A stretch of DNA of 64,000 nucleotides, from NCBI RefSeq assembly GCF_055900595.2, contig NZ_JBVWEU010000002.1. One strand, 5' to 3'. Under the pieces are notes generated by a model. It was given only the letters and a program-made list of their open reading frames with translations, did no database searches and had not been told where the DNA came from. Positions 26,307 to 53,992 of the stretch are shown piece by piece (within the stretch, counting starts at the first letter, position 1; each line of letters starts with the position of its first letter). A program made the translations under genes and the position numbers. Origin of the DNA: a plasmid.

Positions 26307-26579
26307 GGGGTAAGGGGTATTTGTTAAAAATCAGCACTATCCCTGCCAAATAGGATGATTAATATCACAATATATCGACAATTTTTTTAATATTAAACAA
26401 ATAAACATTTGAAAAAAGTTGTTTATGAATGTCATAGATTGATGTAAATCACATTTTTCATAACAACATTTAGACACCTCAAAAATATTCGCTCCTGTAA
26501 AACAACTTTTTTTTCTGTTGTGGGTCACCTTTATATTGAATACTCGTCACCAGTAAACAATATATACTGGAGATTTGTC

Positions 26580-27248: not shown

Positions 27249-27253
27249 CGCCG

Positions 27254-28114: not shown

Positions 28115-28208
28115 TTTCAACCTTTTCTCCCGTAGCCCGTTTATGGGGCTACACGGGGATGCTTTGCCCGAATTTTGCTATCGGGCGGAATGGAACAGGC
28201 GTAACAGC

Positions 28209-29768: not shown

Positions 29769-31189
29769 ATACCTTATTTAATCAGCCTTTGAAGGTCGTG
29801 AACGCGGGGCTACACAGTTTTGCTGACAATATTCAACATGCAGGAGGGCATGCTATATCCCTCAACTGGCAGCCGCCAGCACAAGGTGATATTGACACCG
29901 GTTTGGTTCTGGCGTCATTACTACGCCATCCACTGGTAGAAAGTGCCAACCAAATCGCCATGACACGTTATCTCGAAGCACAGCCCGTGTTGGTGGATGT
30001 CATGCTCGCTAAAGAAGCCATCCCCGAAATGGCTGAACAAAAACGCATTTTACACTCTGGTCCACCGATTGCCTGGGAAGATATGTGTGGTCCGGTAAAA
30101 GGGGCGATTATTGGTGCCATGCTGTACGAAGGCTGGGCTACAAGCCAGAAAGACGCAGAAAACCAGATAAACGCAGGCGAAATCGACCTTGCTCCTTGTC
30201 ATCATTATCACGCGGTTGGACCAATGGCAGGCATTATCAGCCCGTCGATGCCATTATGGGTGGTGGAAAACAAAACCAACGGCCATCGTACTTTTAGCAA
30301 TTTCAATGAGGGTCTGGGTAAGGTTCTCCGTTTTGGTGCCAATAACGATGAAGTTCTCAATCGTCTGGCCTGGATGCGTGATGAACTGGCGCCGGCCATG
30401 AAAGCAGCAATCGCACAACACGGCGAGCTGGAACTCAAGCCATTAATGGCGCAGGCGCTGCATATGGGGGATGAAGTTCATAACCGCAATGCTGCCGCTA
30501 CCGGTTTGCTGATTAAGCGCCTGCTCCCGGCATTGCTGGCCTGCTCTCTTCCACAGGAACATATCCAGCGCGTCGTGGCATTTATCACAGGTAACGATCA
30601 CTTCTTCCTCAATTTGTCGATGGCTGCCTGTAAAGCAATGATGGATGCCGCCGCCAATGTACCGTTCAGTTCAATGGTTACGGTGATGGCGCGTAACGGG
30701 GTGAATTTTGGTATTCGGCTTTCCGGTACTGGCGATCGCTGGTTTCAGGCTCCTGCCAATGCAGTTGAAGGTCTGTTCTTCCCCGGATTTGGCGTTGACG
30801 ACGCCGCTTCTGACCTGGGTGATAGCGCAATTACTGAAACCGCAGGTGTGGGTGGCTTCGCGATGGCGTCATCTCCGGCGATTGTTAAATTTGTGGGAGG
30901 CACCCCTGCCGATGCCACCAATAACAGCCGTCGGATGCAGGCAATCACCCTCGGCGGTAACCCCGCATTTACACTTCCAGCCCTCAATTTTGCCCCCACC
31001 GCAGCAGGTATTGATGCGTGTAAAGTGACCGATCGTGGCATTTTACCGGTCATCAATACGGGTATCGCCCACAAACAAGCGGGAGTCGGACAAATTGGTG
31101 CCGGGATCACCACTGCACCGATGGCCTGTTTTGTCGCTGCTGTACGTGAACTGGCGGAGATCGTCGCAAAGGAGAACCATCATGGTTAA
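29765..31189 (+). CDS. DUF1116-family protein (YlbE/YahG-like)
   Basis: Start ATG overlaps the upstream stop; paralog of 45459-46877 (LFNQPL..VN.G, HSGPPI.WE.MCG, GDSAITET.GVGGFAMA). Confidence 0.65.
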   Translation: MNTLFNQPLKVVNAGLHSFADNIQHAGGHAISLNWQPPAQGDIDTGLVLASLLRHPLVESANQIAMTRYLEAQPVLVDVMLAKEAIPEMAEQKRILHSGPPIAWEDMCGPVKGAIIGAMLYEGWATSQKDAENQINAGEIDLAPCHHYHAVGPMAGIISPSMPLWVVENKTNGHRTFSNFNEGLGKVLRFGANNDEVLNRLAWMRDELAPAMKAAIAQHGELELKPLMAQALHMGDEVHNRNAAATGLLIKRLLPALLACSLPQEHIQRVVAFITGNDHFFLNLSMAACKAMMDAAANVPFSSMVTVMARNGVNFGIRLSGTGDRWFQAPANAVEGLFFPGFGVDDAASDLGDSAITETAGVGGFAMASSPAIVKFVGGTPADATNNSRRMQAITLGGNPAFTLPALNFAPTAAGIDACKVTDRGILPVINTGIAHKQAGVGQIGAGITTAPMACFVAAVRELAEIVAKENHHG

Positions 31190-32138
31190 GCCACTGGCTG
31201 TCGTCGCGGTTGGCGGCAATGCGCTCATTCAGGACGATAAACGCAATAGTATTCCCGATCAATATGTTGCAGTAATGGAAAGCGTGCAGCATATCGTTGA
31301 TATGGTTGAAGCCGGATGGGAGCTGGTGCTAACCCATGGTAATGGCCCGCAGGTAGGCTTTATTCTGCGCCGCTCTGAACTTGCCAGTAACGAAGTTTCT
31401 CCGGTTCCTCTGGATTACGCCGTGGGTGATACCCAAGGCGCCATTGGATACATGTTCCAGAAAGCGCTGCATAACGAATTGGCTCGCCGTGGCATAAACA
31501 AACCGGTAATTGCCCTGGTGACACAAACGCGAGTCAGCCCATATGACGATGCTTTCGCCAGCCCCAGTAAACCGATTGGCGCGTTTCTTGATGAAGAAAC
31601 AGCACAACAACGCCAACAACAACTCGGCTGGACGCTGATGGAGGACGCCGGGCGTGGTTGGCGGCGTACAGTTCCCTCTCCTGCGCCACTGGAAATTATT
31701 GAGCACCACACCATCGCTCACCTTGTGCGCCAGGGATATCTGGTTATAGCCTGCGGCGGCGGCGGTATACCTGTGGTGCGAGACGGGCAACAACTGAAAG
31801 GTGTGGAAGCCGTGATCGATAAAGACCTGGCCTCCGCATTGCTCGCCAGTCAGTTAGGCGCTGATCTGCTGGTGATCCCCACCGGTGTAGAAAAAGTGGC
31901 GATTCACTTTGGTACACCACAACAACAATGGCTCGACGCTATCAGCGTCTACGAAGCTCAAACGCTGTTGCAGGAAGGTCAGTTTGGTGTCGGCAGTATG
32001 CAACCCAAAGTGGAAGCCATTATTGATTTCATCAATGCCAGCCAGCAACAAGGCAAACAGGCCAGCGGACTGATTACTTCACCGCAAACCATAAAAGCAG
32101 CCCTGGCACATCAGAGCGGAACATGGATAACCCTTTAA
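31182..32138 (+). CDS. Carbamate kinase
   Basis: Start at ATG 31182 (overlaps upstream gene by 8 nt); AVGGNAL ... THGNGPQVG ... ACGGGGIPVV motifs. Confidence 0.8.
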   Translation: MVKPLAVVAVGGNALIQDDKRNSIPDQYVAVMESVQHIVDMVEAGWELVLTHGNGPQVGFILRRSELASNEVSPVPLDYAVGDTQGAIGYMFQKALHNELARRGINKPVIALVTQTRVSPYDDAFASPSKPIGAFLDEETAQQRQQQLGWTLMEDAGRGWRRTVPSPAPLEIIEHHTIAHLVRQGYLVIACGGGGIPVVRDGQQLKGVEAVIDKDLASALLASQLGADLLVIPTGVEKVAIHFGTPQQQWLDAISVYEAQTLLQEGQFGVGSMQPKVEAIIDFINASQQQGKQASGLITSPQTIKAALAHQSGTWITL

Positions 32139-32154
32139 TTCTCTGGAGAACACA

Positions 32155-32544
32155 ATGACTACAACACTTTTAGCCGTTAACGGAACGCTGATGCGCGGTC
32201 TGGAACTCAACCCAAATATGCAAAAAGCTGGCGGTATTTTTGTCCGTGAAGACCGAACTGACGCCCATTACCGGTTATGGAGTATTAATGATCGTCATCC
32301 CGGAATGATCCGCGTGAATGAAGGAGGAGCACACGTAGACGTAGAAATCTGGCAACTGCCTCTGGCCAGTTTTGCCGAACTGTTAATGAACGAACCCGAA
32401 GGCCTGACCATTGGAAAAATCAAACTTGCCGATGGTAGCGAAGTACTGGGCGTACTGGCAGAAAGCTGGCTGACTGAAGGCCAGAAGGAGATTACAGCAC
32501 TGGGGGGCTGGCGCAAATACACCGGGAATTTTCACACGATGTAA
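32155..32544 (+). CDS. Small gamma-glutamyl-cyclotransferase-like (AIG2/allophanate-hydrolase C-domain-like) protein
   Basis: 129 aa; weak by-eye resemblance only. Confidence 0.4.
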   Translation: MTTTLLAVNGTLMRGLELNPNMQKAGGIFVREDRTDAHYRLWSINDRHPGMIRVNEGGAHVDVEIWQLPLASFAELLMNEPEGLTIGKIKLADGSEVLGVLAESWLTEGQKEITALGGWRKYTGNFHTM

Positions 32545-32569
32545 CGCGCATTTATAAAGGAAACATATT

Positions 32570-33790
32570 ATGCGTAAAGAAGATAATATGAATACGGCAT
32601 CAGGATTGCGTATTACCATGATTTTGCTGGGTATTGCCGTCACACCTGTGCTGTTGTCATCCTCAAGCCTCGGCAATCAACTTTCCAGTGGTAGTTTAAT
32701 TAGCGTCGTACTATTAGGCGGCGTCATTCTGACCTTACTTTCAGCCATCACCATTAGTGTGGGAGAAAAAGCCCGCCTGCCAACATACGGTATTGTGAAA
32801 TATTCATTTGGCGAAAAAGGGGCCATCGCCATTAATATTTTGATGGCTATAAGTCTGTTCGGCTGGATTGCCGTTACCGCTAATATGTTTGGTCATTCGG
32901 TGCATGACTTACTGGCGCAGAATGGGATTGAAGCGCCACTGGCACTGTTAGTGGCAGCTGGTTGTGTCATTTTTGTCGCCTCTACGGCCTTTGGTTTTTC
33001 CATTCTGGGCAAAGTTGCCCAGGTCGCCGTGCCGGTTATCGCACTGGTGCTGTGTTATATACTCTATGTGGCAACCCATACCGAAGTATCAGCGCCAGCA
33101 GCGATAGCGGAGATGAGTACAGGTGTCGCCGTTTCCACCGTTGTTGGCACTATTATTGTGCTGGTTGCTACACTTCCCGACTTCGGTAGTTTTGTACATA
33201 ACCGAAAACATGCTCTGATTGCCGCAGGTATGACGTTTCTGGTTGCCTACCCTCTGCTATACTGGGCGGGTGCAACGCCGAGTGCCATTAGCGGCCAGGG
33301 CTCTTTACTGAATGCTATGGCAGTATTCGGTGCGGTTATGCCTGCAGCACTGTTGCTGATATTCGCCTGCGTCACCGGTAATGCGGGCAATATGTTCCAG
33401 GGGACGTTGGTAGTTTCCACACTGCTTAGCCGCTTTCCCAAATGGCAGATTACCGTTGCGCTGGGTATCCTTTCCGCCATCGTAGGCAGTATGGATATTA
33501 TGGCGTGGTTTATTCCGTTTCTGCTGTTCCTGGGTATCGCGACTCCCCCAGTTGCCGGAATTTATATCGCTGACTTTTTCCTTTATCGCCGTAATGGCTA
33601 TCAAGAGTCGGTGTTAACTCAGGAGTCACAGGTTAAAGTACTGACATTCGCTGCATGGATCACAGGCACAGCGGTTGGCTTTATGACCGTAAAAGGCTTA
33701 TTCACCCTGACGACGATCCCTTCAGTTGACTCCATTCTGGTGGCATGTATCGCGTATGCGATTCTCAGTCGGGCAAGTCAACACCGCTAA
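32570..33790 (+). CDS. NCS1-family permease (cytosine/purine/hydantoin-type)
   Basis: 406 aa, about 12 hydrophobic segments; resemblance to CodB-type permeases. Confidence 0.6.
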   Translation: MRKEDNMNTASGLRITMILLGIAVTPVLLSSSSLGNQLSSGSLISVVLLGGVILTLLSAITISVGEKARLPTYGIVKYSFGEKGAIAINILMAISLFGWIAVTANMFGHSVHDLLAQNGIEAPLALLVAAGCVIFVASTAFGFSILGKVAQVAVPVIALVLCYILYVATHTEVSAPAAIAEMSTGVAVSTVVGTIIVLVATLPDFGSFVHNRKHALIAAGMTFLVAYPLLYWAGATPSAISGQGSLLNAMAVFGAVMPAALLLIFACVTGNAGNMFQGTLVVSTLLSRFPKWQITVALGILSAIVGSMDIMAWFIPFLLFLGIATPPVAGIYIADFFLYRRNGYQESVLTQESQVKVLTFAAWITGTAVGFMTVKGLFTLTTIPSVDSILVACIAYAILSRASQHR

Positions 33791-33867
33791 TTCCTGGGTA
33801 TACTCAGGCAATGATTACGGCTGAATCTGGAGAGATTCAGCCACTTTACCACTGACCAGGGAGCCTT

Positions 33868-34758
33868 ATGTTCATCTCAGACGAAACGATTCGAATTATT
33901 CATCTGGTCGCCAGACACCAGAACATCACCACCGCAGCCGAACAGTTAAATAAAGTCCCTTCTACTATCAGTTACACCCTGAAGAAAGCGGAAGAAACCC
34001 TGGGCGTTGAACTGTTCATTCGTAAGGGACGATATATTGAATTATCTCCGGCGGGGAGTTACTTCATCGAACATAGCAAAAATATTCTCCGCGATCTGGA
34101 TGCATTAAAGCGCAACACAGTGCTGATTCACGATGGTATTGAGCGTGAACTGACAATTGCGGTGAACAATATTATACCTGGTGATTTTCTGGTGTCATTT
34201 ATTCAAGATTTTGAACGGCAATTCACATCAACAACACTGACGGTAGATATTGAAGTATACAACGGCTGCTGGGATGCGCTGTACAGTAAACGTGCTGATC
34301 TGGTCTACGGTGCTCCTCATGCAGTACCAAGCAGTGAAGGCATCATTAGCGAACCGGTCGGACAAATAGAATGGGATTTTGTCGTCAGCCCACTTCATCC
34401 ACTGGCAGTGAAGCGGAATCCATTAGAAAATAGTGAATTGCGTCATTATCCTGCGGTTTGTATCCGGGATACCTCCGTTAACTTCCCCCCAATGCAAGCC
34501 TGGTTGTTGGAAGGACAAAAACCTATTTTTGTTCCTGACTTCGCCATGGCAATCAGCTTAATAGAACAAAACGTCGGTATTGGTTATATTCCACATCATC
34601 TGGCATTGCCGTTATTGAACAGAGGTAAATTGCTTAAAAAGCCAATGCGCGAACATAAACACGCCACCAAGTTATTTCTTGCCGCTCGTTCCGATGGTAT
34701 AGGAAAAGCCTGTCTGTGGTGCATGTCGTATTTAAGAAATAAGCAATTCATGGCGTAA
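33868..34758 (+). CDS. LysR-family transcriptional regulator
   Basis: 296 aa; N-terminal HTH (TAAEQLNKVPSTISYTLKKAEETLGVELFIRKGR). Confidence 0.75.
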   Translation: MFISDETIRIIHLVARHQNITTAAEQLNKVPSTISYTLKKAEETLGVELFIRKGRYIELSPAGSYFIEHSKNILRDLDALKRNTVLIHDGIERELTIAVNNIIPGDFLVSFIQDFERQFTSTTLTVDIEVYNGCWDALYSKRADLVYGAPHAVPSSEGIISEPVGQIEWDFVVSPLHPLAVKRNPLENSELRHYPAVCIRDTSVNFPPMQAWLLEGQKPIFVPDFAMAISLIEQNVGIGYIPHHLALPLLNRGKLLKKPMREHKHATKLFLAARSDGIGKACLWCMSYLRNKQFMA

Positions 34759-39349: not shown

Positions 39350-39631
39350 GGTAATGACTCCAACTTATTGATAGTGTTTTATGTTCAGATAATGCCCGAT
39401 GACTTTGTCATGCAGCTCCACCGATTTTGAGAACGACAGCGACTTCCGTCCCAGCCGTGCCAGGTGCTGCCTCAGGTTCAGGTTATGCCGCTCAATTCGC
39501 TGCGTATATCGCTTGCTGATTACGTGCAGCTTTCCCTTCAGGCGGGATTCATACAGCGGCCAGCCATCCGTCATCCATATCACCACGTCAAAGGGTGACA
39601 GCAGGCTCATAAGACGCCCCAGCGTCGCCAC
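39350..39631 (-). mobile_element. IS1 fragment (right-end about 280 bp, inverted), truncated internally
   Basis: Starts GGTAATGACTCCAACTTATTGATAGTG; encodes the InsB C-terminus on the minus strand. Confidence 0.8.
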
Positions 39632-40486
<855 letters not shown>

Positions 40487-41095
40487 TAATTACACTGTGG
40501 GTTGACGCCGGAAGAATCAGAGAACAGATACCGTTCTTACTGTAAAACGTGGCTAATATTAATTGAGCACTGCAGTGTTCAGAGCACAAAGAAGAAAAAA
40601 GATGTGTGCGAATGCCTGTAATGTGTTAAAAGAATGTTCCGCGTTTCCGGTACGCTTTTCGTAACTAACAATGCAGGGTGACGTAACGCTGGTTGTGCCG
40701 GAAACGCGTCCCTCCCCCTATCTTTCCTGTTTGGATTTGCCCCTATATTTCTGGATTATCCGACAAAACCGGCGTGAAGTATTACTCTCGTCGCCCAGCA
40801 CCATAAGGATAACGCCCATAAAATCATGAAACTTTTCTTCCAGATTGGATACAATCAGGCCGAAACGGTGATGAATATTATCCAAATCTGATGGTTCGTA
40901 GCGTTTTCAGCCCCCAGATTCTGAGTTGCCTGTAGGGATGATTTCAATTCCCGATTTGTCTATCGCATAGAGAAAAAGAATTTCATTTCTGTTCACCAGA
41001 ACCCATGTAACCCACTCCAATTCGTTATTTATCTCACTGATTGCCCTTCATTTATCTCATTGATGCACCGAAAGGTAAAACTGCCATCCGGTGCA

Positions 41096-42025
41096 TCACG
41101 CTCGATGCATCAAATCCTGATAAATCCCCGTCAGTATTCCTTGTAAGCTAAATTCTCTTTTTATCCACTGAGTGACTTGACCGCTTGCCGAATGCCTGGT
41201 TGCCAACAGCATTCGTGAATCCTGACGTGGGTTGTGGATCTGCCGTGTCACCAGCAATGACTTTTCCATCGCTTCACGCACCATATAGTCTGGCAGAAAA
41301 CCGATTCCCTCCCCCAAGATCTGGCACTGAAGCTTAGTATTAAAGTCGGGAACCAGAATCGACTCTTGCCCGTGTAACAGCCAGCCGACTTTTTTGTTTA
41401 TAGTGTTTGCAGTGTCTTCCACCATGATGTTCGGGTACAGACGTAACTGACTCTCAGAAATGGGCTCAGGAATAAACGCCAGCGGATGAGCCGGAGAAAT
41501 CGCGAACAACCAACGAATCATGCCGATTTCAATGTAATCAATTCCACCACCGTCCAGTAACGTATCGGGCGCGCCAATGGCGATATCAGCCTGGTTATTA
41601 ATGAGTGAATCCCAGACGCCATTATACACCTCTGTAGTAATAGCTATCTGGCAGGTTGGAAAGTGTTCCCTGAGCACTTGCAGAAGCCGAGCTGTATGCT
41701 GAGGGGTATACAACAGTTGATTAATACAAATGCGCACCCGGGATTTAATTCCCTGAGCGATGGCATCAACTCTACGTATGATGGAGTGGTAATCGTTGAG
41801 CAGGTCAGTTGCTTTGCAAAAAAGGTAGTGCCCGGGCTCGGTCAGCTCAATGCTACGGGTAGTTCGGGTAAAAAGCACCACGTCAAGCCCCATTTCCATA
41901 CGCTTGATAGTGTAACTAATTGCCGATGTGGTTAAGCCCAGTTCCTTCGCCGCCTTGCTGAAACTTCTATAGCGGGCAGCCATAGTAAATGCCAGTAAGT
42001 TTTCTTCCGTAAATATTGAATTCAT
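41096..42025 (-). CDS. LysR-family transcriptional regulator, divergent from cluster 2
   Basis: Start taken at internal ATG 42025 (MNSIFTEENLLAFTMAARYRSFSKAAKELGLTTSAISYTIKRME...); HTH plus LysR substrate-binding domain. Confidence 0.75.
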   Translation of the reverse strand: MNSIFTEENLLAFTMAARYRSFSKAAKELGLTTSAISYTIKRMEMGLDVVLFTRTTRSIELTEPGHYLFCKATDLLNDYHSIIRRVDAIAQGIKSRVRICINQLLYTPQHTARLLQVLREHFPTCQIAITTEVYNGVWDSLINNQADIAIGAPDTLLDGGGIDYIEIGMIRWLFAISPAHPLAFIPEPISESQLRLYPNIMVEDTANTINKKVGWLLHGQESILVPDFNTKLQCQILGEGIGFLPDYMVREAMEKSLLVTRQIHNPRQDSRMLLATRHSASGQVTQWIKREFSLQGILTGIYQDLMHRA

Positions 42026-42412
42026 CTTTCTTTCCTCTGGCGACAATACACATACACAACATGATGATTGTTGAATGTATTTGTAATTCTTATAACCGAC
42101 AATCAGTTTTGAAAAAACTAACACCGTATTTACATTTAATTTGAAGGAAATCACACATCTGAATTTTAATTACAGGCAGCTATCCGTGCTGCAGACCACC
42201 TTTATTTATATGACTGCGGATTAATGGCTAAAATATCCCCAGCTATAATAGAAATATTGCACTATATCACACTCTCTTATTATTGTTAATTTTGTTTCAA
42301 TAATTCATGGTCTAATGATGAGTAAATTTTAAATGGATGGTGCTCTATGCATTCTGTTGCTATTCTTGGCTTGTTATATTTGTAAAATCTTAAAAAGAGC
42401 AGGAGATCGATT
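42026..42412. promoter_or_regulatory. Divergent control region between the LysR gene and the cluster 2 operon
   Basis: 387-bp AT-rich intergenic region between divergently oriented genes; inferred from arrangement only. Confidence 0.35.
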
Positions 42413-43018
42413 ATGTCCAATAAAGAACTCATTACAGAATTTCTGCTGGCGGCAGAACAAGGTAATTCCGATGGATTAAAATCATGCCTTGATAAAAAGG
42501 TTGATATTAATGCGACTAACCGCGAGGGGCGTACTGCAATTATTATTGCCAGTCTGAATAAACATTATGACTGCGTTTCTTTATTGATTTCCGCAGGTGC
42601 TGATATTAATAAACAAGATCAAACTTGTTTTAATCCCTTCCTGATTGGCTGCCTGAATAATGATTTAACACTGTTGCGTACGGTATTACCGGCTAACCCC
42701 GACCTTAATTGCCTAACCCGTTTTGGCGGTGTTGGTATTACACCTGCCTGCGAAAAAGGCCATGTCGAGATTGTACGTGAATTGCTGATGCGTACTGATA
42801 TCAATGTCAACCATACTAATTTTGTTGGCTGGACGCCGCTCCTAGAGGCCATCGTGCTGAATGACGGCGGTGAAAAGCAGCAGGAGATCGTCAAACTGTT
42901 GCTTGAGCATGGCGCAAACCCGCACATGACGGATAAATACGGTAAAACCCCGCTGGAGCTGGCGCGAGAAAAAGGCTACCACAAAATTGCCGAGTTGCTG
43001 ATTTCGGCTGGAGCCTGA
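42413..43018 (+). CDS. Ankyrin-repeat protein (YahD-like)
   Basis: 201 aa; repeated ...G.TAL..A...GH...V..LL..GAD.N.. units. Confidence 0.75.
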   Translation: MSNKELITEFLLAAEQGNSDGLKSCLDKKVDINATNREGRTAIIIASLNKHYDCVSLLISAGADINKQDQTCFNPFLIGCLNNDLTLLRTVLPANPDLNCLTRFGGVGITPACEKGHVEIVRELLMRTDINVNHTNFVGWTPLLEAIVLNDGGEKQQEIVKLLLEHGANPHMTDKYGKTPLELAREKGYHKIAELLISAGA

Positions 43019-43103
43019 CAACAGGAGCACGATTATCGCTATATTATCACGGCAATCTTTTCGGGCACTAACCGCAGACTGCGCGTTTCTCACTTTTCGG
43101 GGA

Positions 43104-43952
43104 ATGGGCCAGGTTGAACAGGTTTTTTCCCATGCGGTAAATCTGTTAATACCTGAACAGCAGCGACTGCTGACGTTACTGAGTGAGGATTGTGATAACG
43201 CACCTAACAGTTGTCGTTTAGCACTGACACATTATGAAGACCTTTTTCACCCCGGTGAACAGGTCAATTTTAGCGGGTCTGGAATAACTGTTGGAAATGA
43301 TAAATGGATAGAAATAACCGGTTGTCAGATGTGGCGAATACCACGGTGGACATCTGATTCAGCAAGCCTTGCCAAAGTCGGCTGGCAGCATTGGGAAGAG
43401 TTTATCCGCCAACAACTAAGAAGCAACGACACATTATTTCTGTACCAGGGTGACAATCCATTTTATCAGGAAATTTCTCGCCAATTACTCAACCGCCGAA
43501 AAAATTTGCTGAAGGCGTTGTGTACAGGAGAAAACATCACTGCGGCAGTCAACCAGTTAATTGGTCTTGGAATAGGGCTGACGCCATCATCGGATGATTA
43601 TTTAGTAGGTTTAAGCACTATTTTATTTATTCAAGGACATCCACTAAGGAAGTATAGATACGATTTCTTAGCAGCATTACAACTTGCAGGAAATAACATA
43701 ACGCTTCTCAGCAAAATAACGTTAGAGGAAGCATTTAATCAGCGTTATCGGGAAAGAGTCGGACGGCTACTGAACCAATTTATTACTGAGCCACAACCCA
43801 TTTCTACGCAATATGTTACTGACATAAAAAATATAGGCTCAAGTTCTGGATGCGACATGCTGTATGGCATGGCGGATGCCTGCGCCCTGAGCCACAGGTC
43901 CGGAGGTAATTATGTCAATCAGGATAGTTGTAAAAAAAAACACGTATTTTGA
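43104..43952 (+). CDS. DUF2877-family protein (YahE/YlbF-like)
   Basis: 282 aa; paralog of 27254-28114. Confidence 0.55.
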   Translation: MGQVEQVFSHAVNLLIPEQQRLLTLLSEDCDNAPNSCRLALTHYEDLFHPGEQVNFSGSGITVGNDKWIEITGCQMWRIPRWTSDSASLAKVGWQHWEEFIRQQLRSNDTLFLYQGDNPFYQEISRQLLNRRKNLLKALCTGENITAAVNQLIGLGIGLTPSSDDYLVGLSTILFIQGHPLRKYRYDFLAALQLAGNNITLLSKITLEEAFNQRYRERVGRLLNQFITEPQPISTQYVTDIKNIGSSSGCDMLYGMADACALSHRSGGNYVNQDSCKKKHVF

Positions 43953-45459
43953 TTCTGTTTCACTGATGTCTATCTCCACGCGCGCAAATAAGCTTGATGG
44001 AGTTGAGCAGGCATTTGTTGCTATGGCGACAGAGATGAATAAGGGGGTGCTGAAGAATCTCGGTCTGCTGACCCCTGAGCTGGAAGAGGCGAAAAGTGGC
44101 GATCTGATGATTGTCATTAAAGGTACCAGCGAGGAGGCGAACGAGCGGACGCTAATAGCGATTGATGAGCTGTTTGCGCATAAAGAACAGGGAGGCCAGC
44201 ACGAAGCACGCTATGCCACGATTGCCAGTGCGAAGAAGCATGCTCCAGAGAGTAATCTGGCGGTGATCTCTGTCAATGGCCTGTTTGCTGCTCGTGAAGC
44301 TCGTCAGGCACTACAAAATAACCTCAATGTTATGCTGTTTTCTGACAACGTCTCTCTTGAGGACGAGCTGGAACTCAAGCATCTGGCACATGAAAAAGGG
44401 TTGTTGATGATGGGGCCTGATTGTGGAACCGCCATCATTAACGGCGCAGCGTTGTGTTTTGGCAATGCAGTGCGTCGCGGCAACATCGGAATCATTGGTG
44501 CCTCCGGTACGGGTAGCCAGGAGCTGAGCGTACGCATTCACGAATTTGGCGGCGGGATTTCCCAGCTGATTGGGACAGGTGGACGCGATATGAGTGAAAA
44601 AATTGGCGGCCTGATGATGCTTGACGCGATTAGCATGCTGGAGGCCGATCCACAAACTGAGATCATTACGCTTATATCCAAACCTCCTGCACCAGCGGTA
44701 GCCCGTAAGGTGCTGGAACGTGCGCGCACCTGTCACAAGCCTGTGGTGGTGTGTTTCCTCGGACGTGAGTCCACCCCTGCGGATGAAGAAGGCCTACAGT
44801 TTGCCCGCGGTACTAAAGAGGCTGCCTTGAAAGCGGTACTGTTGACTGGTGTGAAAAAAGAGAGTCTGGATTTGCATCCGCTCAACTGGCAGCTGATTGA
44901 AGAGGTTCGCTCCCGTCTGACTCCACAACAAAAGTATATCCGTGGCCTGTTCTGTGGTGGCACGTTATGCGATGAAGCGATGTTTACTGCCATGGAAAAA
45001 CTCTCGGATGTGTATAGCAATATTCACCCGAATCCGGCGTTCCGCCTTACAGATCTCAACCGTAGCGTGGCGCATACCTTCCTCGATTTCGGCGATGATT
45101 ATTTTACCAACGGCAAACCACATCCGATGATCGATCCCACCAATCGCATTACCCGGCTCTTGCAGGAAGCACAGGATCCTGAAGTTGGCGTGATCGTGAT
45201 GGACTTCATTCTTGGATTTGGATCACATGAAGATCCGGTTGGAGTGATGCTGGATACAATTGTTGAAGCCAAAGAAATTGCTGCCGCAGACGGTCGCCCG
45301 CTTGAGATCCTCGGCTATGTGCTGGGAACCGACCTTGATACACCGTCGCTGAAAAAACAGTGTCAGATGTTGACCGATGCCGGGGTTATTTGGGCAAGCA
45401 GTAGCACCAACACCGGATTACTGGCACGTGAATTTATATTTAAAGGGGAGGAAGGCTGA
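43912..45459 (+). CDS. FdrA-like protein (YahF-like)
   Basis: 515 aa; paralog of 28209-29768. Confidence 0.7.
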   Translation: MSIRIVVKKNTYFDSVSLMSISTRANKLDGVEQAFVAMATEMNKGVLKNLGLLTPELEEAKSGDLMIVIKGTSEEANERTLIAIDELFAHKEQGGQHEARYATIASAKKHAPESNLAVISVNGLFAAREARQALQNNLNVMLFSDNVSLEDELELKHLAHEKGLLMMGPDCGTAIINGAALCFGNAVRRGNIGIIGASGTGSQELSVRIHEFGGGISQLIGTGGRDMSEKIGGLMMLDAISMLEADPQTEIITLISKPPAPAVARKVLERARTCHKPVVVCFLGRESTPADEEGLQFARGTKEAALKAVLLTGVKKESLDLHPLNWQLIEEVRSRLTPQQKYIRGLFCGGTLCDEAMFTAMEKLSDVYSNIHPNPAFRLTDLNRSVAHTFLDFGDDYFTNGKPHPMIDPTNRITRLLQEAQDPEVGVIVMDFILGFGSHEDPVGVMLDTIVEAKEIAAADGRPLEILGYVLGTDLDTPSLKKQCQMLTDAGVIWASSSTNTGLLAREFIFKGEEG

Positions 45460-46877
45460 TGAGCCAGACACTGTTTAATCAGCCGCTGAACGTTATTAAT
45501 GTCGGTATCGAAATGTTCAGCGATGACATGAAAAAGCAGAATGTACCGGTAACCCAACTTGACTGGACACCGCCAGGCCAAGGAAACATACAAGTGGTAA
45601 CGGCACTGGACGACATTGCCGCTTCACCACTGGCAGACAAAATTGCAGCTGCTAATCAGCTGGCGCTGGAACGCATTATCCAGTCGCATCCTGTGCTAAT
45701 TGGCTATGATCAGGCGATCAACGTCGTGCCGGGTATGACCCGTAACACTATCCTTCACGCCGGGCCGCCAATCCACTGGGAAAAAATGTGCGGCGCAATG
45801 AAGGGCGCAGTAACCGGGGCTCTGGTATTTGAAGGACTGGCGAAAGATCTGGATGATGCCGCCGAACTAGCTGCTTCAGGTGAAATCATCTTCTCTCCGT
45901 GCCACGAACATGACTGTGTCGGCTCAATGGCGGGTGTCACGTCTGCATCGATGTTTATGCACATCGTCGAGAACAAAACCTATGGAAACCGCGCATATAC
46001 CAATATGAGCGAGCAGATGGCAAAGATCCTGCGTATGGGCGCTAACGACCAGAGCGTTATAGAGCGTCTTAACTGGATGCGAGATGTACTGGGACCTATG
46101 TTGCGCGATGCTATGAAGCTGGCGGGCGAAATCGATCTGCACTTGATGTTAGCGCAGGCGCTGCATATGGGCGATGAGTGCCATAACCGCAACAACGCCG
46201 GGACGGCGCTGCTGATTCAGACGCTGACGCCGTGGATTATTCAGACTGGCTACCCTGTTGAGCAGCAGCGTGAGGTGTTCGAGTTTGTCCTCAGTAGTGA
46301 TTACTTCTCAGGACCAACATGGATGGCAATGTGTAAAGCCGCAATGGACGCTGCGCACGGCATTGAATACAGCACCGTGGTGACAACGATGGCACGCAAT
46401 GGTGTTGAGTTCGGTCTTCGTATTAGCGGTTTGCCGGGCCAGTGGTTTACCGGTCCGGCGCAGCAGGTGATTGGGCCGATGTTTGCGGGCTATAAGCTAG
46501 AGGATTCCGGACGTGATATCGGTGATAGTGCAATTACCGAAACCTACGGCGTTGGCGGTTTCGCTATGGCGACGGCACCAGCTATTGTGTCACTGGTGGG
46601 CGGAACAGTTGAGGAAGCTATTGATTTCTCACGTAAAATGAGAGAAATCACTCTCGGAGAAAACCCCAACGTCACCATTCCCCTGCTTGGTTTTATGGGC
46701 GTACCGACCGCTATCGATATTACACGTGTAGGCAGTACAGGCATTCTGCCGGTAATTAACACAGCCATTGCGCACAAAGACGCAGGGATCGGCATGATCG
46801 GCGCAGGAATTGTTCACCCGCCGTTCACTTGTTTTGAAAAGGCGATCCTCAACTGGCGTGACCACTACTGCCAATAA
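45459..46877 (+). CDS. DUF1116-family protein (YahG/YlbE-like)
   Basis: 472 aa; start overlaps upstream stop; paralog of 29765-31189. Confidence 0.65.
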   Translation: MSQTLFNQPLNVINVGIEMFSDDMKKQNVPVTQLDWTPPGQGNIQVVTALDDIAASPLADKIAAANQLALERIIQSHPVLIGYDQAINVVPGMTRNTILHAGPPIHWEKMCGAMKGAVTGALVFEGLAKDLDDAAELAASGEIIFSPCHEHDCVGSMAGVTSASMFMHIVENKTYGNRAYTNMSEQMAKILRMGANDQSVIERLNWMRDVLGPMLRDAMKLAGEIDLHLMLAQALHMGDECHNRNNAGTALLIQTLTPWIIQTGYPVEQQREVFEFVLSSDYFSGPTWMAMCKAAMDAAHGIEYSTVVTTMARNGVEFGLRISGLPGQWFTGPAQQVIGPMFAGYKLEDSGRDIGDSAITETYGVGGFAMATAPAIVSLVGGTVEEAIDFSRKMREITLGENPNVTIPLLGFMGVPTAIDITRVGSTGILPVINTAIAHKDAGIGMIGAGIVHPPFTCFEKAILNWRDHYCQ

Positions 46878-46989
46878 CAATAACCGGGGCTAACGCAGTT
46901 AGCCCCACAGTAGCGGAAAACGTTGTTTACCTTCAGGGCTGGGCGATCTCCATGATCGCAAACGATGCTTAACCTGTTAAGGAGATTCC

Positions 46990-48540
46990 ATGAACAGCAT
47001 AAAACTAGAATGGAAACGTGGTGACTGGGCGGCTTACTTTGGACTGATGACCAACAATCTGACTAACCTGCTGACAATGATGGGTCTGCTAATTTTTGTC
47101 GTCGGAATCCCTACTGAAATTGTCTATGGACGCATTGCGCCTGCCTTTGGTCTTGCAGTGCTGGCGGCCAGTGTCTGCTACTCCTGGTTTGGTCTACAGA
47201 TGGTGAAGAAAACCGGTCGTAGCGATGTAACGGCGCTGCCGTCTGGACCGAGCGCACCCTCAATCTTTACCGTGACATTCCTGGTGCTGATGCCGGTTTA
47301 TCAGCAAACCAAAGATGCCAACTTTGCTATTCAGATAGGATTGGTGTGGTGCTTTGTCGAAGCGTTGATCCTGGTCGGTGGCTCCTTCCTGGGTGAGACT
47401 ATCCGCAAGATGATCCCGCGTACAGTGCTGCTTTCTTGTCTGTCCGGACTGGGGTTATTACTGCTGGCAATGAACCCGATGCTGCAAGCGTTCGAAGCGC
47501 CGACAGTTTCTTTCATCGTCCTGTTATTGATCTTCATTAACTGGTTCGGTAAGAAGCCGATTTTTCCCCATATTCCTACCGGTTTGCTGTTGCTGATTGC
47601 TGGTACGTCCCTAGCGTGGATATCCGGTTTACAAAGCCCGGAAGACATTAAAGCGTCGATGTCTTCCTTCGGCTTCAACCCGCCGGAAATTCATGTAAGG
47701 AGCTTCCTGCAAGGTTTGCCGCACGCTCTGCCATATCTGGCTTCTGCAGTTCCTTTGGGCCTGGCTAACTACATTTTTGACCTCGAGAACATTGAAAGTG
47801 CGCACGCGGCTGGTGATGAATACAACACCCGTAAGGTCATGATGGCGAACGGCTTTGCCTCCATGCTCGGTTGCATGCTGGGTAATCCGTTCCCGGTAAC
47901 CGTATATGTTGGGCATGCAGGCTGGAAAGCTATGGGCGCTAGTATCTGCTATACCCTCGCATCAGGCATCACTATGTTCCTGGTGCCATTGTTTGGGTTG
48001 GGCGCGTTTATGCTCGCCATTATTCCCATGACTGCTATAGTGCCAATTCTGGTTTTTATCGGTGTGGTAACCGCCAATCAGGTGGTGCGAGAAACTCCTA
48101 AAGTCGAGGTTCCCGTCATTTTCATCTGTCTGTTCCCATGGGTCGCCAACTGGGCATTGACCATCGTTAACAGCGTGATGGGCGCAGCCGGAACATCCGC
48201 TGAGAAACTTGGTAGCGACCTGTTGCACAGCAAAGGCGTCTATTACGATGGACTGATGCATCTGGGAAGCGGTGCACCGCTGGCCAGCATGCTGTGGGGA
48301 TGCATTGCTATCTTTGCCATTATGAATAAGCCGCTGCGCGGGGCGATAGCTGCATCCTTTGGAGCACTGTTATCGCTGTTTGGCGTGATTCACTCCCCAG
48401 CGGTTGGCTTTGCGGAAGGCAGCTCGATTGTGTTTGTTGTGGCCTACCTGATGATGCTTGCTATGTTTGCCCTCAAGCATGTTATTGATAGCCGTGAAAC
48501 AGTGGCTGCGTCTGAGCAGGAAGAGACTAAAACGACCTGA
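46990..48540 (+). CDS. Polytopic permease (nucleobase/NCS2- or AzgA-like; family uncertain)
   Basis: 516 aa with 12 or more hydrophobic segments; sits between the DUF1116 and carbamate kinase genes. Confidence 0.5.
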   Translation: MNSIKLEWKRGDWAAYFGLMTNNLTNLLTMMGLLIFVVGIPTEIVYGRIAPAFGLAVLAASVCYSWFGLQMVKKTGRSDVTALPSGPSAPSIFTVTFLVLMPVYQQTKDANFAIQIGLVWCFVEALILVGGSFLGETIRKMIPRTVLLSCLSGLGLLLLAMNPMLQAFEAPTVSFIVLLLIFINWFGKKPIFPHIPTGLLLLIAGTSLAWISGLQSPEDIKASMSSFGFNPPEIHVRSFLQGLPHALPYLASAVPLGLANYIFDLENIESAHAAGDEYNTRKVMMANGFASMLGCMLGNPFPVTVYVGHAGWKAMGASICYTLASGITMFLVPLFGLGAFMLAIIPMTAIVPILVFIGVVTANQVVRETPKVEVPVIFICLFPWVANWALTIVNSVMGAAGTSAEKLGSDLLHSKGVYYDGLMHLGSGAPLASMLWGCIAIFAIMNKPLRGAIAASFGALLSLFGVIHSPAVGFAEGSSIVFVVAYLMMLAMFALKHVIDSRETVAASEQEETKTT

Positions 48541-48566
48541 ATAGCCTGCAAACGGAAGATAATTCT

Positions 48567-49529
48567 ATGAAAGAACTTGTGGTCGTTGCCATTGGTGGCA
48601 ACAGCATTATCAAAGATAACGCCAGCCAGTCGATTGAGCATCAGGCGGAGGCGGTGAAGGCCGTCGCCGATACGGTTCTGGAAATGCTGGCTTCCGATTA
48701 CGACATTGTGCTGACCCACGGCAACGGGCCGCAGGTCGGTCTGGATTTACGCCGCGCGGAGATAGCCCACGAGCGCGAAGGGCTACCCTTAACGCCGCTG
48801 GCGAACTGTGTGGCGGATACGCAAGGCGGCATTGGCTATCTGATCCAGCAGGCGCTGAACAACCGGCTGGCGCCTCACGGCGAGAAAAAAGCCGTCACCG
48901 TGGTGACTCAGGTGGAAGTGGATAAAAACGATCCGGGGTTTGTCCATCCCACCAAGCCCATCGGTGCATTCTTTAGTGAAAACCAGCGTGATGAACTACA
49001 AAAGGCAAACCCTGACTGGCGTTTTGTTGAAGATGCCGGACGGGGCTATCGCCGCGTGGTCGCCTCGCCGGAACCGAAACGTATTGTCGAAGCACCTGCC
49101 ATTAAGACTCTGATCCAGCAAGGCTTTGTGGTGATTGGCGCGGGCGGCGGTGGCATTCCGGTGGTGCGTACTGACGCAGGGGATTACCAAAGCGTGGACG
49201 CGGTTATCGACAAAGATCTCTCTAGCGCGCTACTGGCTCGCGAAATTCACGCCGACATTCTGGTGATCACCACCGGCGTGGAAAAAGTGAGTATTCATTT
49301 TGGGAAACCCAACCAGCATGCACTGGATACAGTGGATGTCCTAACGATGGCCCGTTACATGCAGGAGGGTCACTTCCCGCCTGGGAGTATGTTACCGAAG
49401 ATTCTTGCCAGTCTGGAGTTCCTGGAACGTGGAGGTAAAAGAGTGATTATCACCACGCCTGAATGCCTGTCCGCGGCACTGCGTGGCGAAACAGGCACCC
49501 ATATTATCCACTCCCAAGAGGAGACGTAA
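48567..49529 (+). CDS. Carbamate kinase (YahI-like)
   Basis: 320 aa; AIGGNSI ... THGNGPQVG ... GAGGGGIPVV; paralog of 31182-32138. Confidence 0.8.
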   Translation: MKELVVVAIGGNSIIKDNASQSIEHQAEAVKAVADTVLEMLASDYDIVLTHGNGPQVGLDLRRAEIAHEREGLPLTPLANCVADTQGGIGYLIQQALNNRLAPHGEKKAVTVVTQVEVDKNDPGFVHPTKPIGAFFSENQRDELQKANPDWRFVEDAGRGYRRVVASPEPKRIVEAPAIKTLIQQGFVVIGAGGGGIPVVRTDAGDYQSVDAVIDKDLSSALLAREIHADILVITTGVEKVSIHFGKPNQHALDTVDVLTMARYMQEGHFPPGSMLPKILASLEFLERGGKRVIITTPECLSAALRGETGTHIIHSQEET

Positions 49530-50626
49530 ATTAAGGAAAGCGACCGCCGCCGTGAATTTTTAATGTTCATTGCAGATTATCGTGGGCTGGAAATGATAAC
49601 GGTTGGGGAGTTATTGTTTAGTTGCTAAAACAGAACGATAACCAACCCCAACCGTTCTCAATTTCGAATACTATCTTTTCCATTTATCTCTGGATAGGCT
49701 TTGACGTCGTCCCTACTGAGTAAAATCCCCCTCATCATCCACCTAAAACCGATTGAAAACGGTCATTACTCTTGTGGCAAACAGGCTAAAGCCGTTCACG
49801 ATGCTTCACTTCGCACCTTATCGTAATGAACAATACTGGTATTTCCAGTTCAGTTACGCCTACCCGTCTACCGCATTCTTTGCCCTAACTACGGCATAGT
49901 TCGGGATTATATCAGCTGGCTAAAGCCTTATGCTCATCAGACCACATGACTCATTGAGCATGTTGAGGCGTTACTCAAAATCTTGCCGATTAAACATATT
50001 TCGTAATTTCTTACCCTGCACTAGCATATCATCAATACTATCGACAAACGTCAGTTGCAAATAGAGGTCACAGGGTCTGATTGATGTACTGCCAAGGCCG
50101 GGTCATGAAAGAGTTTGCCCTGTTCAAAGCTCATCGTTACGCACCGTCGTAGCCGATGCGGATACTCATCAATCCTCTGGATAGGTGAGGTGCGTAGTAG
50201 AGAAGCTCGGTCGTTTTTCGTTAATCTGAATCAGTACTGTCAACATATTCAAGTCGTTAATATGGATATGAATACCTCCTTTGACCTAGAGGTACAGATG
50301 CACTACCCCCCAAGCTGTCAACGACGGATGAAAAGTGGCTCTTCCGCAACCTGGATGGAGATTTTCATGCCAGTGGACTCATGACCCTCTGCCTGAGTAG
50401 TTCAAATCCGGCTCGACCATACATCTGGCCTTTCAGCATTTTTAGCCAATTTACATGACTTTCGACACCCCCCATTATTCCAGCGACTGCTGATTGCCTC
50501 ACATATAGCCGCAGCATCAGCTGCCATCCTTGCAGCCACGCGCCGAAGTTACCACTTTCTCGTTGCTCTTTTAACCACTCCCTCCATGGGTCCAGAAGTC
50601 CTCACTCTGGAGGCCGGGTTGACATT

Positions 50627-51439
50627 TCAGGGAATGTTCCTGAACACACCCAGAGACTGTCTGTCACACGTGATAAGCCTGTAATACGGGATAAGCCTGT
50701 AATACGGGATATTTCCCCTGAACCCACATCCCTTGTTATGTAGTGCCATAACCTCTGTCCAACGCTGATGCCGTTTTTGGCGGGTTTGCTGTTTAAGGCG
50801 TTCCGGACGACGGAGCGATGCTACAGGCACAGACAGTACTGGCTTAGGTGATTTCTTTGGTGACAACCCACTGGCAACAAGACGTATCAGAGGCATCTGT
50901 CTGTACATCATTCGTTCAGGCGCATCGCCAATATTTTTTAGCCGGTGCCATCGAGCTGCTATCTGTCTGGCCTGAGGTGCACCTTCACGTGATGCTGTCG
51001 CATAGACTCCGCCACGGTCACATGAGACAACCTGTATTTCCGGATATTTTCTGAACCAGGTCGCCAGCGTACTCTGCTCGCAACCGGGAAGCAGGACGAG
51101 GGGACGGTGAGTATAAAGATTGACGATTAACGTACCGTAATGGTAGCCCCGATGCCACGCCCACTCATCAATACCGACATGAGGCGCGCCTGACTGTTTC
51201 GTCTCCGGGGTATTAATAACCCTGCGAAGAAGAGTATCAGCACTGCAACGGAGCCCCACTGCCGTTGCTGCCTGTTTCCCGGCCTCACCTCCGGCTATTA
51301 ATCCCAGTTGATGTTGTAAATTTTGTAACACCTGTGAAGAATGCTGGGAGTGAACCGGCGAAGGGGGCAAGCGACCCGGCAAAAATTTTACGTGAACAAG
51401 CCGGGTTACGGCAGTACCAGTGGCGGACGGAAAATACAA
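50627..51439 (-). pseudogene. ISL3-family transposase fragment (N-terminus missing), with an in-frame tandem duplication near the C-terminus
   Basis: ...GIDEWAWHRGYHYGTLIVNLYTHRPLVLLPGCEQSTLATWFRKYPEIQVVSCDRGGVYA...; NIPYYRLIPYYRL from a direct 18-bp duplication; upstream end cut near the IS1 left end. Confidence 0.45.
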
Positions 51440-51685
51440 GCCATAGCGTCTGCCCTGAGCAGGGTAGATGCTGTATCCGGCGCCGACGATAACTATGAAC
51501 AGAGTCGCTACGCTTAAAGCATTCAGGACTTGTGCTGTTTTGCGTTTTCCGTGGAGATGGAGGGTTATACCGTCAGAGCTAATAATTTGTCGACTGCATC
51601 TCCATCCGCAAGGTAACTGTAGAAGTGTCTGGTGATGCTGCCAACTTACTGATTTAGTGTATGATGGTGTTTTTGAGGTGCTCCA

Positions 51686-53992
<2,307 letters not shown>

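Follow-up and report, generated by a model that had tools for sequence, protein, structure and literature searches.

The closest characterised relatives of the gene cluster examined here are the E. coli proteins AllF, AllG and AllH. They split oxalurate, using phosphate, into oxamate and carbamoyl phosphate, and from the latter AllK makes ATP (PMC11326118, PMC9843812). AllFGH was shown in 2024 to be the oxamic transcarbamylase, and its subunits are the only experimental members of this protein architecture (PMC11326118). The other relative is the chromosomal yahB-yahJ locus (b0316-b0324) of E. coli K-12, whose genes have long been part of the E. coli 'y-ome' (PMC11551758). We analysed a 64,000-nt stretch (the window) of the plasmid contig NZ_JBVWEU010000002.1 (RefSeq assembly GCF_055900595.2), in which positions 41096-49529 carry a seven-gene set, here called cluster 2, that is related to both systems. 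Cluster 2 is an intact mobile operon of about 8.5 kb bounded by insertion sequences (IS). With a probability of roughly 0.55, we read it as a LysR-controlled catabolic operon for the import of a ureide, its phosphorolysis by AllF-AllG(-AllH) together with an ankyrin-repeat partner, and the recovery of ATP by a carbamate kinase.

The original prediction, made from the sequence letters, had named seven genes and their strands in this interval; all of them were present, and a check of the open reading frames (ORFs) found every one intact. The genes and the elements between them are as follows:

41096-42025, minus strand: LysR regulator, orthologue of YahB, transcribed divergently (ORF open to 42154)
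42026-42412: divergent control region between the LysR and ankyrin genes
42413-43018, plus strand: ankyrin-repeat protein (Ank) of 201 aa, orthologue of YahD, predicted to be cytoplasmic
43104-43952, plus strand: AllH/DUF2877 subunit, orthologue of YahE (Pfam AllH, E 2e-22)
43912-45459, plus strand: AllF/FdrA-like subunit, orthologue of YahF (NCBIfam NF004760, 490 bits against a cutoff of 433)
45459-46877, plus strand: AllG/DUF1116 subunit, orthologue of YahG (Pfam AllG, E 6e-90)
46885-46907: GC-rich hairpin CGGGGCTAACGCAGTTAGCCCCA with a perfect stem of 10 bp, directly after the AllG stop in the 112-nt spacer between AllG and the permease (46878-46989)
46990-48540, plus strand: permease of 516 aa, unclassified family, predicted 7+7 fold of the UraA/NCS2/SLC26 type
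48567-49529, plus strand: carbamate kinase, orthologue of YahI (NCBIfam NF009007, 629 bits against a cutoff of 266)

The reading frames of AllH and AllF share 41 nt, and the start codon of AllG overlaps the stop of AllF (ATGA), while the remaining gaps from Ank through the kinase measure 85, 112 and 26 nt. The start of the LysR gene lies at 42025 in the RefSeq annotation of an identical plasmid and in all orthologues, which gives a protein of 309 aa, and the first 43 codons of the longer frame are probably not translated. The ratios of nonsynonymous to synonymous substitution rates (dN/dS), calculated against the Citrobacter and Trabulsiella orthologues, were 0.04-0.08 for LysR, 0.04-0.07 for Ank and for AllF, about 0.03 for AllG, 0.05-0.07 for the permease, about 0.05 for the carbamate kinase and 0.16-0.19 for AllH. 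Judged by these values, all seven are real genes under strong purifying selection, far beyond chance. The regulator has the HTH_1 and LysR_substrate domains and the divergent position of a LysR-type activator, its DNA binding being presumed, and its top NCBIfam matches were AllS (268 bits, cutoff 372) and PunR, both below cutoff. The subunits were recognised by the Pfam models PF06545 (AllG) and PF11392 (AllH), and AllF orthologues carry the three Pfam domains HMA_AllF_N, CoA_binding and Ligase_CoA. In the Protein Data Bank (PDB), AllF matched 3dmy (FdrA) with E 1e-83 and AllG matched 3clq with E 2e-192. The adjacent kinase also scored 345.6 on the TIGR00746 arcC equivalog model, slightly under its cutoff of 358.25. 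The G+C content is about 41% over the control region, Ank and AllH (42000-44000), against about 52% from AllF through the kinase.

The likeness to E. coli yahB-yahI, which the original prediction had pointed out, is real: the LysR regulator, YahD, YahE, YahF, YahG and YahI of K-12 all have orthologues in cluster 2, in an order common to both, with identities of 85% (YahB), 72% (YahD), 53% (YahE), 83% (YahF), 90% (YahG) and 93% (YahI). The large permease was rightly named as extra relative to K-12, whose yahG-yahI gap holds only repetitive extragenic palindromic (REP) repeats where the plasmid has the permease gene. This gap consists of about 420 nt of tandem REP, and the annotated yahH lies wholly within four to five REP/BIME (bacterial interspersed mosaic element) repeats (locus L003, 8745-9165); REP sites in yahH were also noted earlier (PMC11551758). 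The yahH REP block of K-12 occupies the exact position of the permease gene of all other Enterobacterales. Neither blastn nor tblastn found a permease remnant in the gap. The K-12 locus has, in addition, a small membrane protein, YahC, and an amidohydrolase exported through twin-arginine translocation (Tat), YahJ; the plasmid has neither, and tblastn revealed no remnant of YahJ or YahC anywhere in the window.

The nearest relatives of cluster 2 are chromosomal loci of Citrobacter youngae, C. braakii and C. werkmanii, with protein identities of 87% for LysR, 90-92% for Ank, 73-81% for AllH, 91-93% for AllF, 95-96% for AllG, 94-95% for the permease and 90% for the carbamate kinase. Collinear DNA homology to four Citrobacter loci, at about 85%, is limited to 41064-49563. 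It ends with the 34 nt that follow the kinase stop (49530-49563), the point from which yahJ would be expected, and the Tat-exported YahJ that lies downstream in the yah locus is missing from the plasmid copy; the end of the homology thus marks yahJ as cut off at the IS boundary. Because of the Citrobacter comparison and the missing YahJ and YahC remnants, we regard the gene set of the plasmid as the ancestral arrangement without yahJ, and the chromosomal locus of E. coli as the form from which the permease was lost. On this comparison of loci, the K-12 locus is the derived form, and the permease and Ank are ancestral. The description of cluster 2 as a 'differently decorated copy' was therefore correct in that a second, differently equipped paralogous cluster is present in the window, but Ank and the permease are conserved ancestral parts rather than additions made on the plasmid.

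The carbamate kinase gene was found to be a mosaic: from about 48570 to 49240 its identity is 92-98% to K-12 yahI and 75-83% to Citrobacter, and its final 290 nt are again Citrobacter-like. The mosaic is evidence that the incoming unit recombined with an Escherichia yahI. The unit would thus have come from a Citrobacter-like enterobacterial chromosome, been captured between insertion sequences and then recombined with the yahI of its host; the DNA identity of about 85% confined to 41064-49563, the IS flanks and the mosaic kinase gene all point to this origin. The plasmid unit may in this way give E. coli a transporter that the chromosomal yah locus is without.

To place cluster 2 among its relatives, we ran the permease alignment against one genome of each GTDB species, which confirmed 159 relatives, of which the best 80 loci were kept; their ORFs were called crudely and labelled by BLASTP. 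Of 87 loci, a count that takes in some examined besides the scan, 84 are not truncated by the end of a contig, and in all of these the permease adjoins Ank, AllF and AllG. The 84 loci come from Enterobacterales, beta- and alpha-proteobacteria and Firmicutes, and nearly all have a carbamate kinase as well. Within the Enterobacterales the order is fixed, with a divergent LysR gene followed by Ank, AllH (where present), AllF, AllG, permease, carbamate kinase and, nearly always, YahJ; the order from LysR to the kinase is identical in more than 70 enterobacterial loci, and the plasmid copy has it too. By this conservation of gene neighbourhood, the permease and Ank are a conserved core of an ancestral module that extends over at least four bacterial classes.

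The gene that the plasmid copy lacks, yahJ, encodes a member of a cytosine-deaminase-like amidohydrolase subfamily (NF005312, 713 bits), and a twin-arginine signal, SRREFLS...AYAA, is present in every enterobacterial homologue. YahJ figures among the listed Tat substrates, and deletion of the chromosomal yahJ mildly attenuated a strain of extraintestinal pathogenic E. coli in mice, with a competitive index of 0.70 (PMC7549933). In Firmicutes and Bosea we found cytoplasmic YahJ-like enzymes, sometimes in two or three copies, or a small deaminase of the cytidine deaminase fold, often accompanied by an NCS1 permease and a PucR regulator. Deaminase-less clusters occur in Janthinobacterium, Herminiimonas, Pantoea sp. 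A4, Providencia rustigianii, Paenibacillus and Azospirillum, and their content equals the plasmid set. Since these lineages have a plasmid-like gene set, we infer that the imported molecule itself is the substrate of the transferase and that a deaminase would add to the precursors that can be used.

The permease gave no Pfam match even at E 10 and no NCBIfam match, and it had no sequence match in the PDB, either with phmmer or with a 54-sequence profile. Homologues 61-95% identical were found in Citrobacter, Enterobacter, Aeromonas, Providencia, Janthinobacterium, Brevibacillus, Paenibacillus, Bosea and Pasteurellaceae, and a library of 1.84 billion representatives contained 2,118 relatives. 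Within the orthologous group identity is at least 61%, and relatives outside it reach at most 38%. By these comparisons the permease belongs to a transporter family that is widespread, strongly conserved and outside the coverage of Pfam and NCBIfam. An AlphaFold2 model computed from the 54-sequence alignment (predicted local distance difference test, pLDDT, 92.4; predicted template modelling score, pTM, 0.89) displays 14 helices in a 7+7 inverted repeat, with short strands in transmembrane helices 3 and 10 (TM3 and TM10), the hallmark of the UraA fold. Foldseek matched the model to SVCT1, prestin/SLC26, AZG2, UraA, BicA and SLC26Dg with E values from 3e-7 to 1e-5 and probability 1.0, at template modelling (TM) scores of about 0.5 and identities of 12-17%. 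The model thus establishes a predicted 7+7 fold of the UraA/SLC26 type. The permease has this fold, and the matches to PF00860 (Xan_ur_permease) or NCBIfam models that would mark a nucleobase permease are missing; only one of the 54 distant relatives reaches E <=0.001 for PF00860. The database name 'xanthine permease' is not established, as nucleobase and anion carriers match equally well.

The Ank protein is 72% identical to K-12 YahD, 90-92% to the Citrobacter, 75% to the Janthinobacterium and 63% to the Brevibacillus homologues, it is as constrained as the catalytic subunits (dN/dS 0.04-0.07), and no signal peptide is visible in its sequence. In Bosea, Photobacterium, Neobacillus, Peribacillus, Paenibacillus and Trichococcus it is replaced by an ankyrin-plus-TPR protein of 374-480 aa. 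Ank is found beside the 516-aa permease, beside another membrane protein of 394 aa (Trichococcus) and with no dedicated permease (K-12); these three settings argue that it tracks the Yah-type enzyme and not one particular transporter. From its conservation and co-occurrence, Ank is most likely a non-catalytic partner of the enzyme, and the role of an assembly or regulatory subunit is plausible. We also considered other roles for this protein. Docking on the permease was not supported by an AlphaFold2 model of a permease-(GGGGS)6-Ank fusion computed with a paired alignment: its pTM was 0.65, against 0.89 for the permease alone and a baseline of about 0.62-0.68 for fusions without an interface, with both parts confident and the linker disordered, which is a weak negative result. 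A function as Tat chaperone for YahJ was rejected because Ank persists in YahJ-less loci, and a function as anti-activator of LysR because it persists in loci with PucR instead of LysR.

As for the enzyme core, the AllF architecture, the AllG and AllH genes beside AllF and the adjacent carbamate kinase all correspond to the AllFGH type. The identity to the characterised E. coli proteins is 38% for AllF, 46% for AllG and 38% for the kinase against AllK/YbcF (BLASTP), and AllH had no BLASTP match to characterised AllH. Orthology to AllFGH and membership in the allantoin regulon were not found: no all (allantoin) genes are linked in cluster 2 or in about 90 related loci. The original prediction had called the pathway uncharacterised, which holds for the substrate, as this is not established; the core families, however, are now AllF/AllG/AllH, oxamic transcarbamylase (PMC11326118), though cluster 2 is a paralogue at 38-46%. 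By analogy, the paralogy to AllFGH and the linked carbamate kinase suggest that the reaction is likely the phosphorolysis of a ureide to carbamoyl phosphate, followed by ATP formation.

Residues 12-53 of AllG match the C-terminal tail of E. coli FdrA, and the first ~45 residues of Yah-type AllG (45459-45620 of the window) were seen to be homologous to the last ~45 of E. coli FdrA/AllF (locus L096, 8200-8348), so that the boundary between the two proteins has shifted, which argues that AllF and AllG act as one enzyme. For AllF, AllG and AllH together, the same is suggested by the overlapping frames, the boundary shift and a fusion of AllH with AllF in one 817-aa ORF of Zophobihabitans (locus L055, 5967-8420). 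AllH is the fastest-evolving gene of the set and the most diverged from both K-12 and Citrobacter. It is missing from 22 otherwise intact loci of Enterobacter, Leclercia, Lelliottia, Silvania and Huaxiibacter, where the gap between Ank and AllF measures 14-109 nt (loci listed: L004, L023, L026-L029, L032, L033, L038-L040, L042-L046, L048, L050, L053 and L070), and also from an Avibacterium copy.

Oxamic transcarbamylase was first studied in enterococci. The Enterococcus-type locus that is the source of PDB 3clq consists of PucR, AllH, AllF and a 72%-identical AllG with a 393-aa membrane protein, and no ankyrin gene, carbamate kinase or permease of the 516-aa type was found nearby. As a lead to the substrate this locus was dropped; it does not identify one. 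In the Enterococcus and Trichococcus clusters, another membrane protein of about 394 aa stands in the transporter position; the two are 67% identical to each other and belong to no Pfam family (L095, 11198-12379; L098, 10485-11669).

The control region between LysR and Ank contains the palindrome ATTGTTAA-N5-TTTCAATAAT at 42282-42304, for which the cross-genus consensus is ATTGTTGAA-N4/5-TTCAACAAT, as well as a related half-site at 42067-42087 and TGCAC-N4-TCACA at 42258-42271. When 17 intergenic regions, ranging from Citrobacter to Proteus and Aeromonas, are aligned, these blocks are kept amid otherwise diverged sequence, and the shared region thereby has the conserved dyad of the T-N11-A type expected of LysR regulators. 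LysR presumably binds the conserved blocks, and the conservation of the palindrome and the further blocks across genera supports regulated expression of cluster 2. The hairpin at 46885-46907 lies in the same spacer position as the REP repeats of K-12 and had no Rfam match; it could be an attenuator, an element of mRNA stability or a precursor of REP.

The window belongs to an IncF ColV-type virulence plasmid of avian-type E. coli. Over the cluster region it matches pR2-2, a plasmid from a chicken E. coli, at 100% identity. pR2-2 is a conjugative IncFII plasmid with eitD and colicin-immunity genes; the window differs from it by 625 nt missing inside the IS1 (39365-39631) left of the cluster and is otherwise 99.8-99.9% identical over 42 kb. 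With the RefSeq annotation of pR2-2 mapped onto the window, the boundaries are:

39365-40410: left boundary, with a partial IS1 (39365-39630) and an IS3-family transposase pseudogene (39780-40410)
50102-53906: right boundary, with a transposase fragment, an ISL3 pseudogene, an IS1 fragment and IS100
52105-52887: istB gene of IS100
52884-53906: istA gene of IS100

An 8.6-kb query of the cluster matched 70 PLSDB plasmids, chiefly from poultry, pigs and humans, with an identity of at least 99%. The permease gene is present in 141 of 5,426 complete E. coli genomes (2.6%), in 105 plasmid and 45 chromosomal places; all of these copies are at least 99% identical, and a divergent copy is absent among the 5,426 genomes. 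In E. coli strain 104 the cluster-2 unit lies between the same IS fragments inside a chromosomal island.

The other cluster in the window, cluster 1 (26520-34758), has its own core of AllH, AllF, AllG and carbamate kinase with a LysR regulator and a permease. It is only 34-48% identical to cluster 2 and is without an ankyrin protein; it has instead an isochorismatase-type cysteine hydrolase, a 129-aa protein of the allophanate-hydrolase C-terminal domain and an NCS1 'cytosine' permease. The hydrolase and the AH_C domain recall the chemistry of biuret, triuret and allophanate. Clusters of this type also occur in the tkt1 island of APEC O1 (APEC, avian-pathogenic E. coli) and in GR29 of BEN2908, and clusters 1 and 2 are contiguous on at least 23 plasmids. 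On the chromosome of the chicken pathogen Avibacterium paragallinarum (locus L092, 5487-19721), a cluster-2-type set (LysR, Ank, AllF, AllG and permease) adjoins a cluster-1-type set, and the two share one AllH and one carbamate kinase. The pairing in Avibacterium and on the avian E. coli plasmid hints at two systems acting on related substrates in birds.

From these data we propose the following pathway. The permease would import a small N-carbamoyl (ureido) compound; the leading guess for this substrate is an N-acylurea resembling oxalurate, probably a breakdown product derived from purines or pyrimidines. The regulator resembling AllS and PunR, and the PucR regulators, NCS1 permeases and cytosine/guanine-type deaminases of the Firmicute loci, lend the pathway this purine or pyrimidine flavour. 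In the cytoplasm, AllF-AllG(-AllH) with Ank would cleave the compound with phosphate to carbamoyl phosphate and a de-carbamoylated product, and the carbamate kinase would convert carbamoyl phosphate and ADP to ATP, CO2 and NH3. In the ancestral chromosomal form, YahJ may first convert an amino or imino precursor in the periplasm. The reaction type, its direction, the control by LysR and the role of Ank are the parts of this scheme that we infer. We consider the cluster functional, as its ORFs are intact, its dN/dS values range from 0.03 to 0.19, its control region is conserved and its E. coli copies are at least 99% identical.

Several observations weigh against this interpretation. The identity to the characterised enzymes is only 38-46% and AllH is not detectable by this comparison, so the substrate and even the reaction could differ. 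AllH, essential in E. coli AllFGH, is absent from the 22 loci mentioned, so the subunit logic is not simply transferable. The Enterococcus-type locus is without an adjacent Ank, and the association of Ank with the enzyme is therefore strong and not absolute. A covariation of evolutionary rates over seven genes and 66 loci grouped Ank with LysR and YahJ instead of AllF and AllG; saturation, gene position and recombination confound this analysis, which we therefore set aside, but it lends no support to an enzyme-subunit role. It is spacing and synteny that suggest co-transcription of cluster 2, as the consensus scans for promoters and terminators gave counts equal to the shuffled expectation and were uninformative. 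Rfam searches, of the window region with E values up to 1 and of 12 diverse related loci at the gathering score, gave no riboswitch or other ligand-binding RNA as a clue. Having lost yahJ, the plasmid copy might depend on a chromosomal YahJ for use of the natural precursor. Finally, the literature library that was searched held no paper on the plasmid cluster and none that assigns a function to YahB-J.

A bolder version of the proposed pathway, which we hold as tentative, is that Ank, or the ankyrin-plus-TPR protein, is an obligatory structural partner of AllF-AllG in a distinct carbamoyltransferase holoenzyme and can replace AllH, that the permease represents a new transporter family and that the ATP-yielding pathway serves a ureide other than oxalurate. 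This could be formed by oxidation of uric acid or guanine, or be a cytosine- or guanidine-like compound after deamination. The plasmid would then restore to E. coli a pathway whose chromosomal version lost its transporter and, paired with cluster 1 as in Avibacterium, serve as an adaptation to the uric-acid-rich avian host. The cluster could also be simply a second oxalurate system, that is, the role and substrate of AllFGH-AllK in anaerobic allantoin use, duplicated on a plasmid. The three enzyme families and the carbamate kinase are common to both, the top match of the regulator is AllS, and the predicted anion-carrier-like fold would suit oxalurate. We find this unlikely, because AllF, AllG and the kinase share 38-46% identity with the allantoin enzymes and 83-93% with the yah paralogues, which coexist with the all genes in E. 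coli genomes, because allantoin genes are linked in none of the about 90 loci, and because the recurrent cytosine-deaminase-like enzyme, Ank and the different transporter are not needed by the oxalurate branch. An operon for uptake and salvage of nucleobases (xanthine or other purines), in which carbamoyl chemistry is not central, is improbable. In its favour, homologues of the permease are named xanthine permease or AGZA family in the sources, and AZG2 and UraA are among the fold matches, with PucR and PunR-like regulators linked; that name, however, is a propagated annotation without validation. The permease fails the Pfam Xan_ur_permease model and every NCBIfam model, it is only 12-17% identical to solved carriers, among which the anion carriers fit equally well, and it is never found away from AllF and AllG, with a carbamate kinase almost always at hand.

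The remaining alternatives concern the status of the cluster or of single genes. It is doubtful that cluster 2 is a non-functional hitch-hiker, a chromosomal fragment trapped between insertion sequences and crippled by the loss of yahJ. The IS debris on both flanks, the truncation exactly at yahJ and the single allele confined to 2.6% of complete E. coli genomes would agree with such a view, but in about 70 plasmids and at 45 chromosomal places neither the control region nor any of the seven ORFs is disrupted, and a yahJ-less set is natural in several lineages; the recent spread of one allele shows selection neither way. The RefSeq name 'acyl-CoA synthetase FdrA', the CoA_binding and Ligase_CoA domains and the relationship to the alpha subunit of succinyl-CoA synthetase (SCS) would fit a cluster that activates an organic acid with coenzyme A (CoA), its kinase acting on another acyl phosphate. 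This is very unlikely, given that the sole experimental assignment for the architecture is carbamoyl transfer (PMC11326118), that the linked kinase passes the carbamate kinase model and that no SCS-beta/ATP-grasp partner is present. Hardly credible, finally, is the idea that Ank is a secreted effector of the virulence plasmid, directed at the host and unrelated to the neighbouring enzymes: although its top NCBIfam matches are Legionella Dot/Icm ankyrin effectors and the plasmid is of the avian-pathogenic type, the scores are at most 69 bits (the best 68.5 against a cutoff of 500) where the cutoffs run from 500 to 1400 and reflect generic ankyrin repeats only, there is no signal sequence, and the gene keeps one and the same place in the operons of soil, insect-gut and Gram-positive bacteria and of non-pathogens.

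The informative version of the yah genes is the transporter-complete form of Citrobacter, Enterobacter, Providencia, other bacteria and the plasmids, and not that of K-12. The 2024 assignment of AllFGH makes the yah chemistry testable, and the minimal seven-gene module is now defined for cloning and screening. Unusually for an enzyme system of bacterial catabolism, an ankyrin protein is flagged as one of its core components. Should the substrate be a nitrogen waste derived from the host, the paired clusters on plasmids of avian-pathogenic E. coli would represent a metabolic fitness trait and not cargo.

Compared with AllFGH-AllK, cluster 2 shares the enzyme families and the kinase, and the expected chemistry runs from ureide and phosphate to carbamoyl phosphate and ATP; it is, however, a paralogue with Ank, with its own permease and with no allantoin genes, the boundary between its Yah-type AllF and AllG lies about 45 residues earlier, and AllH is dispensable in many of its Yah-type relatives. 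With the nucleobase and anion carriers of the NCS2/NAT, AzgA and SLC26/SulP families the permease has the predicted fold in common, whereas it forms a sharply separate subfamily without a STAS domain. The arginine and agmatine deiminase pathways, with which the comparison was drawn before (PMC9843812), follow a shared logic, in which a transporter, a deiminase or deaminase, a phosphorolytic carbamoyltransferase and a carbamate kinase lead to ATP. In contrast to those pathways, the transferase of the present system does not have the ornithine or aspartate transcarbamylase (OTC/ATC) fold, its transporter has a different fold, and its deaminase is of the amidohydrolase (CodA-like) type and periplasmic in Enterobacterales.

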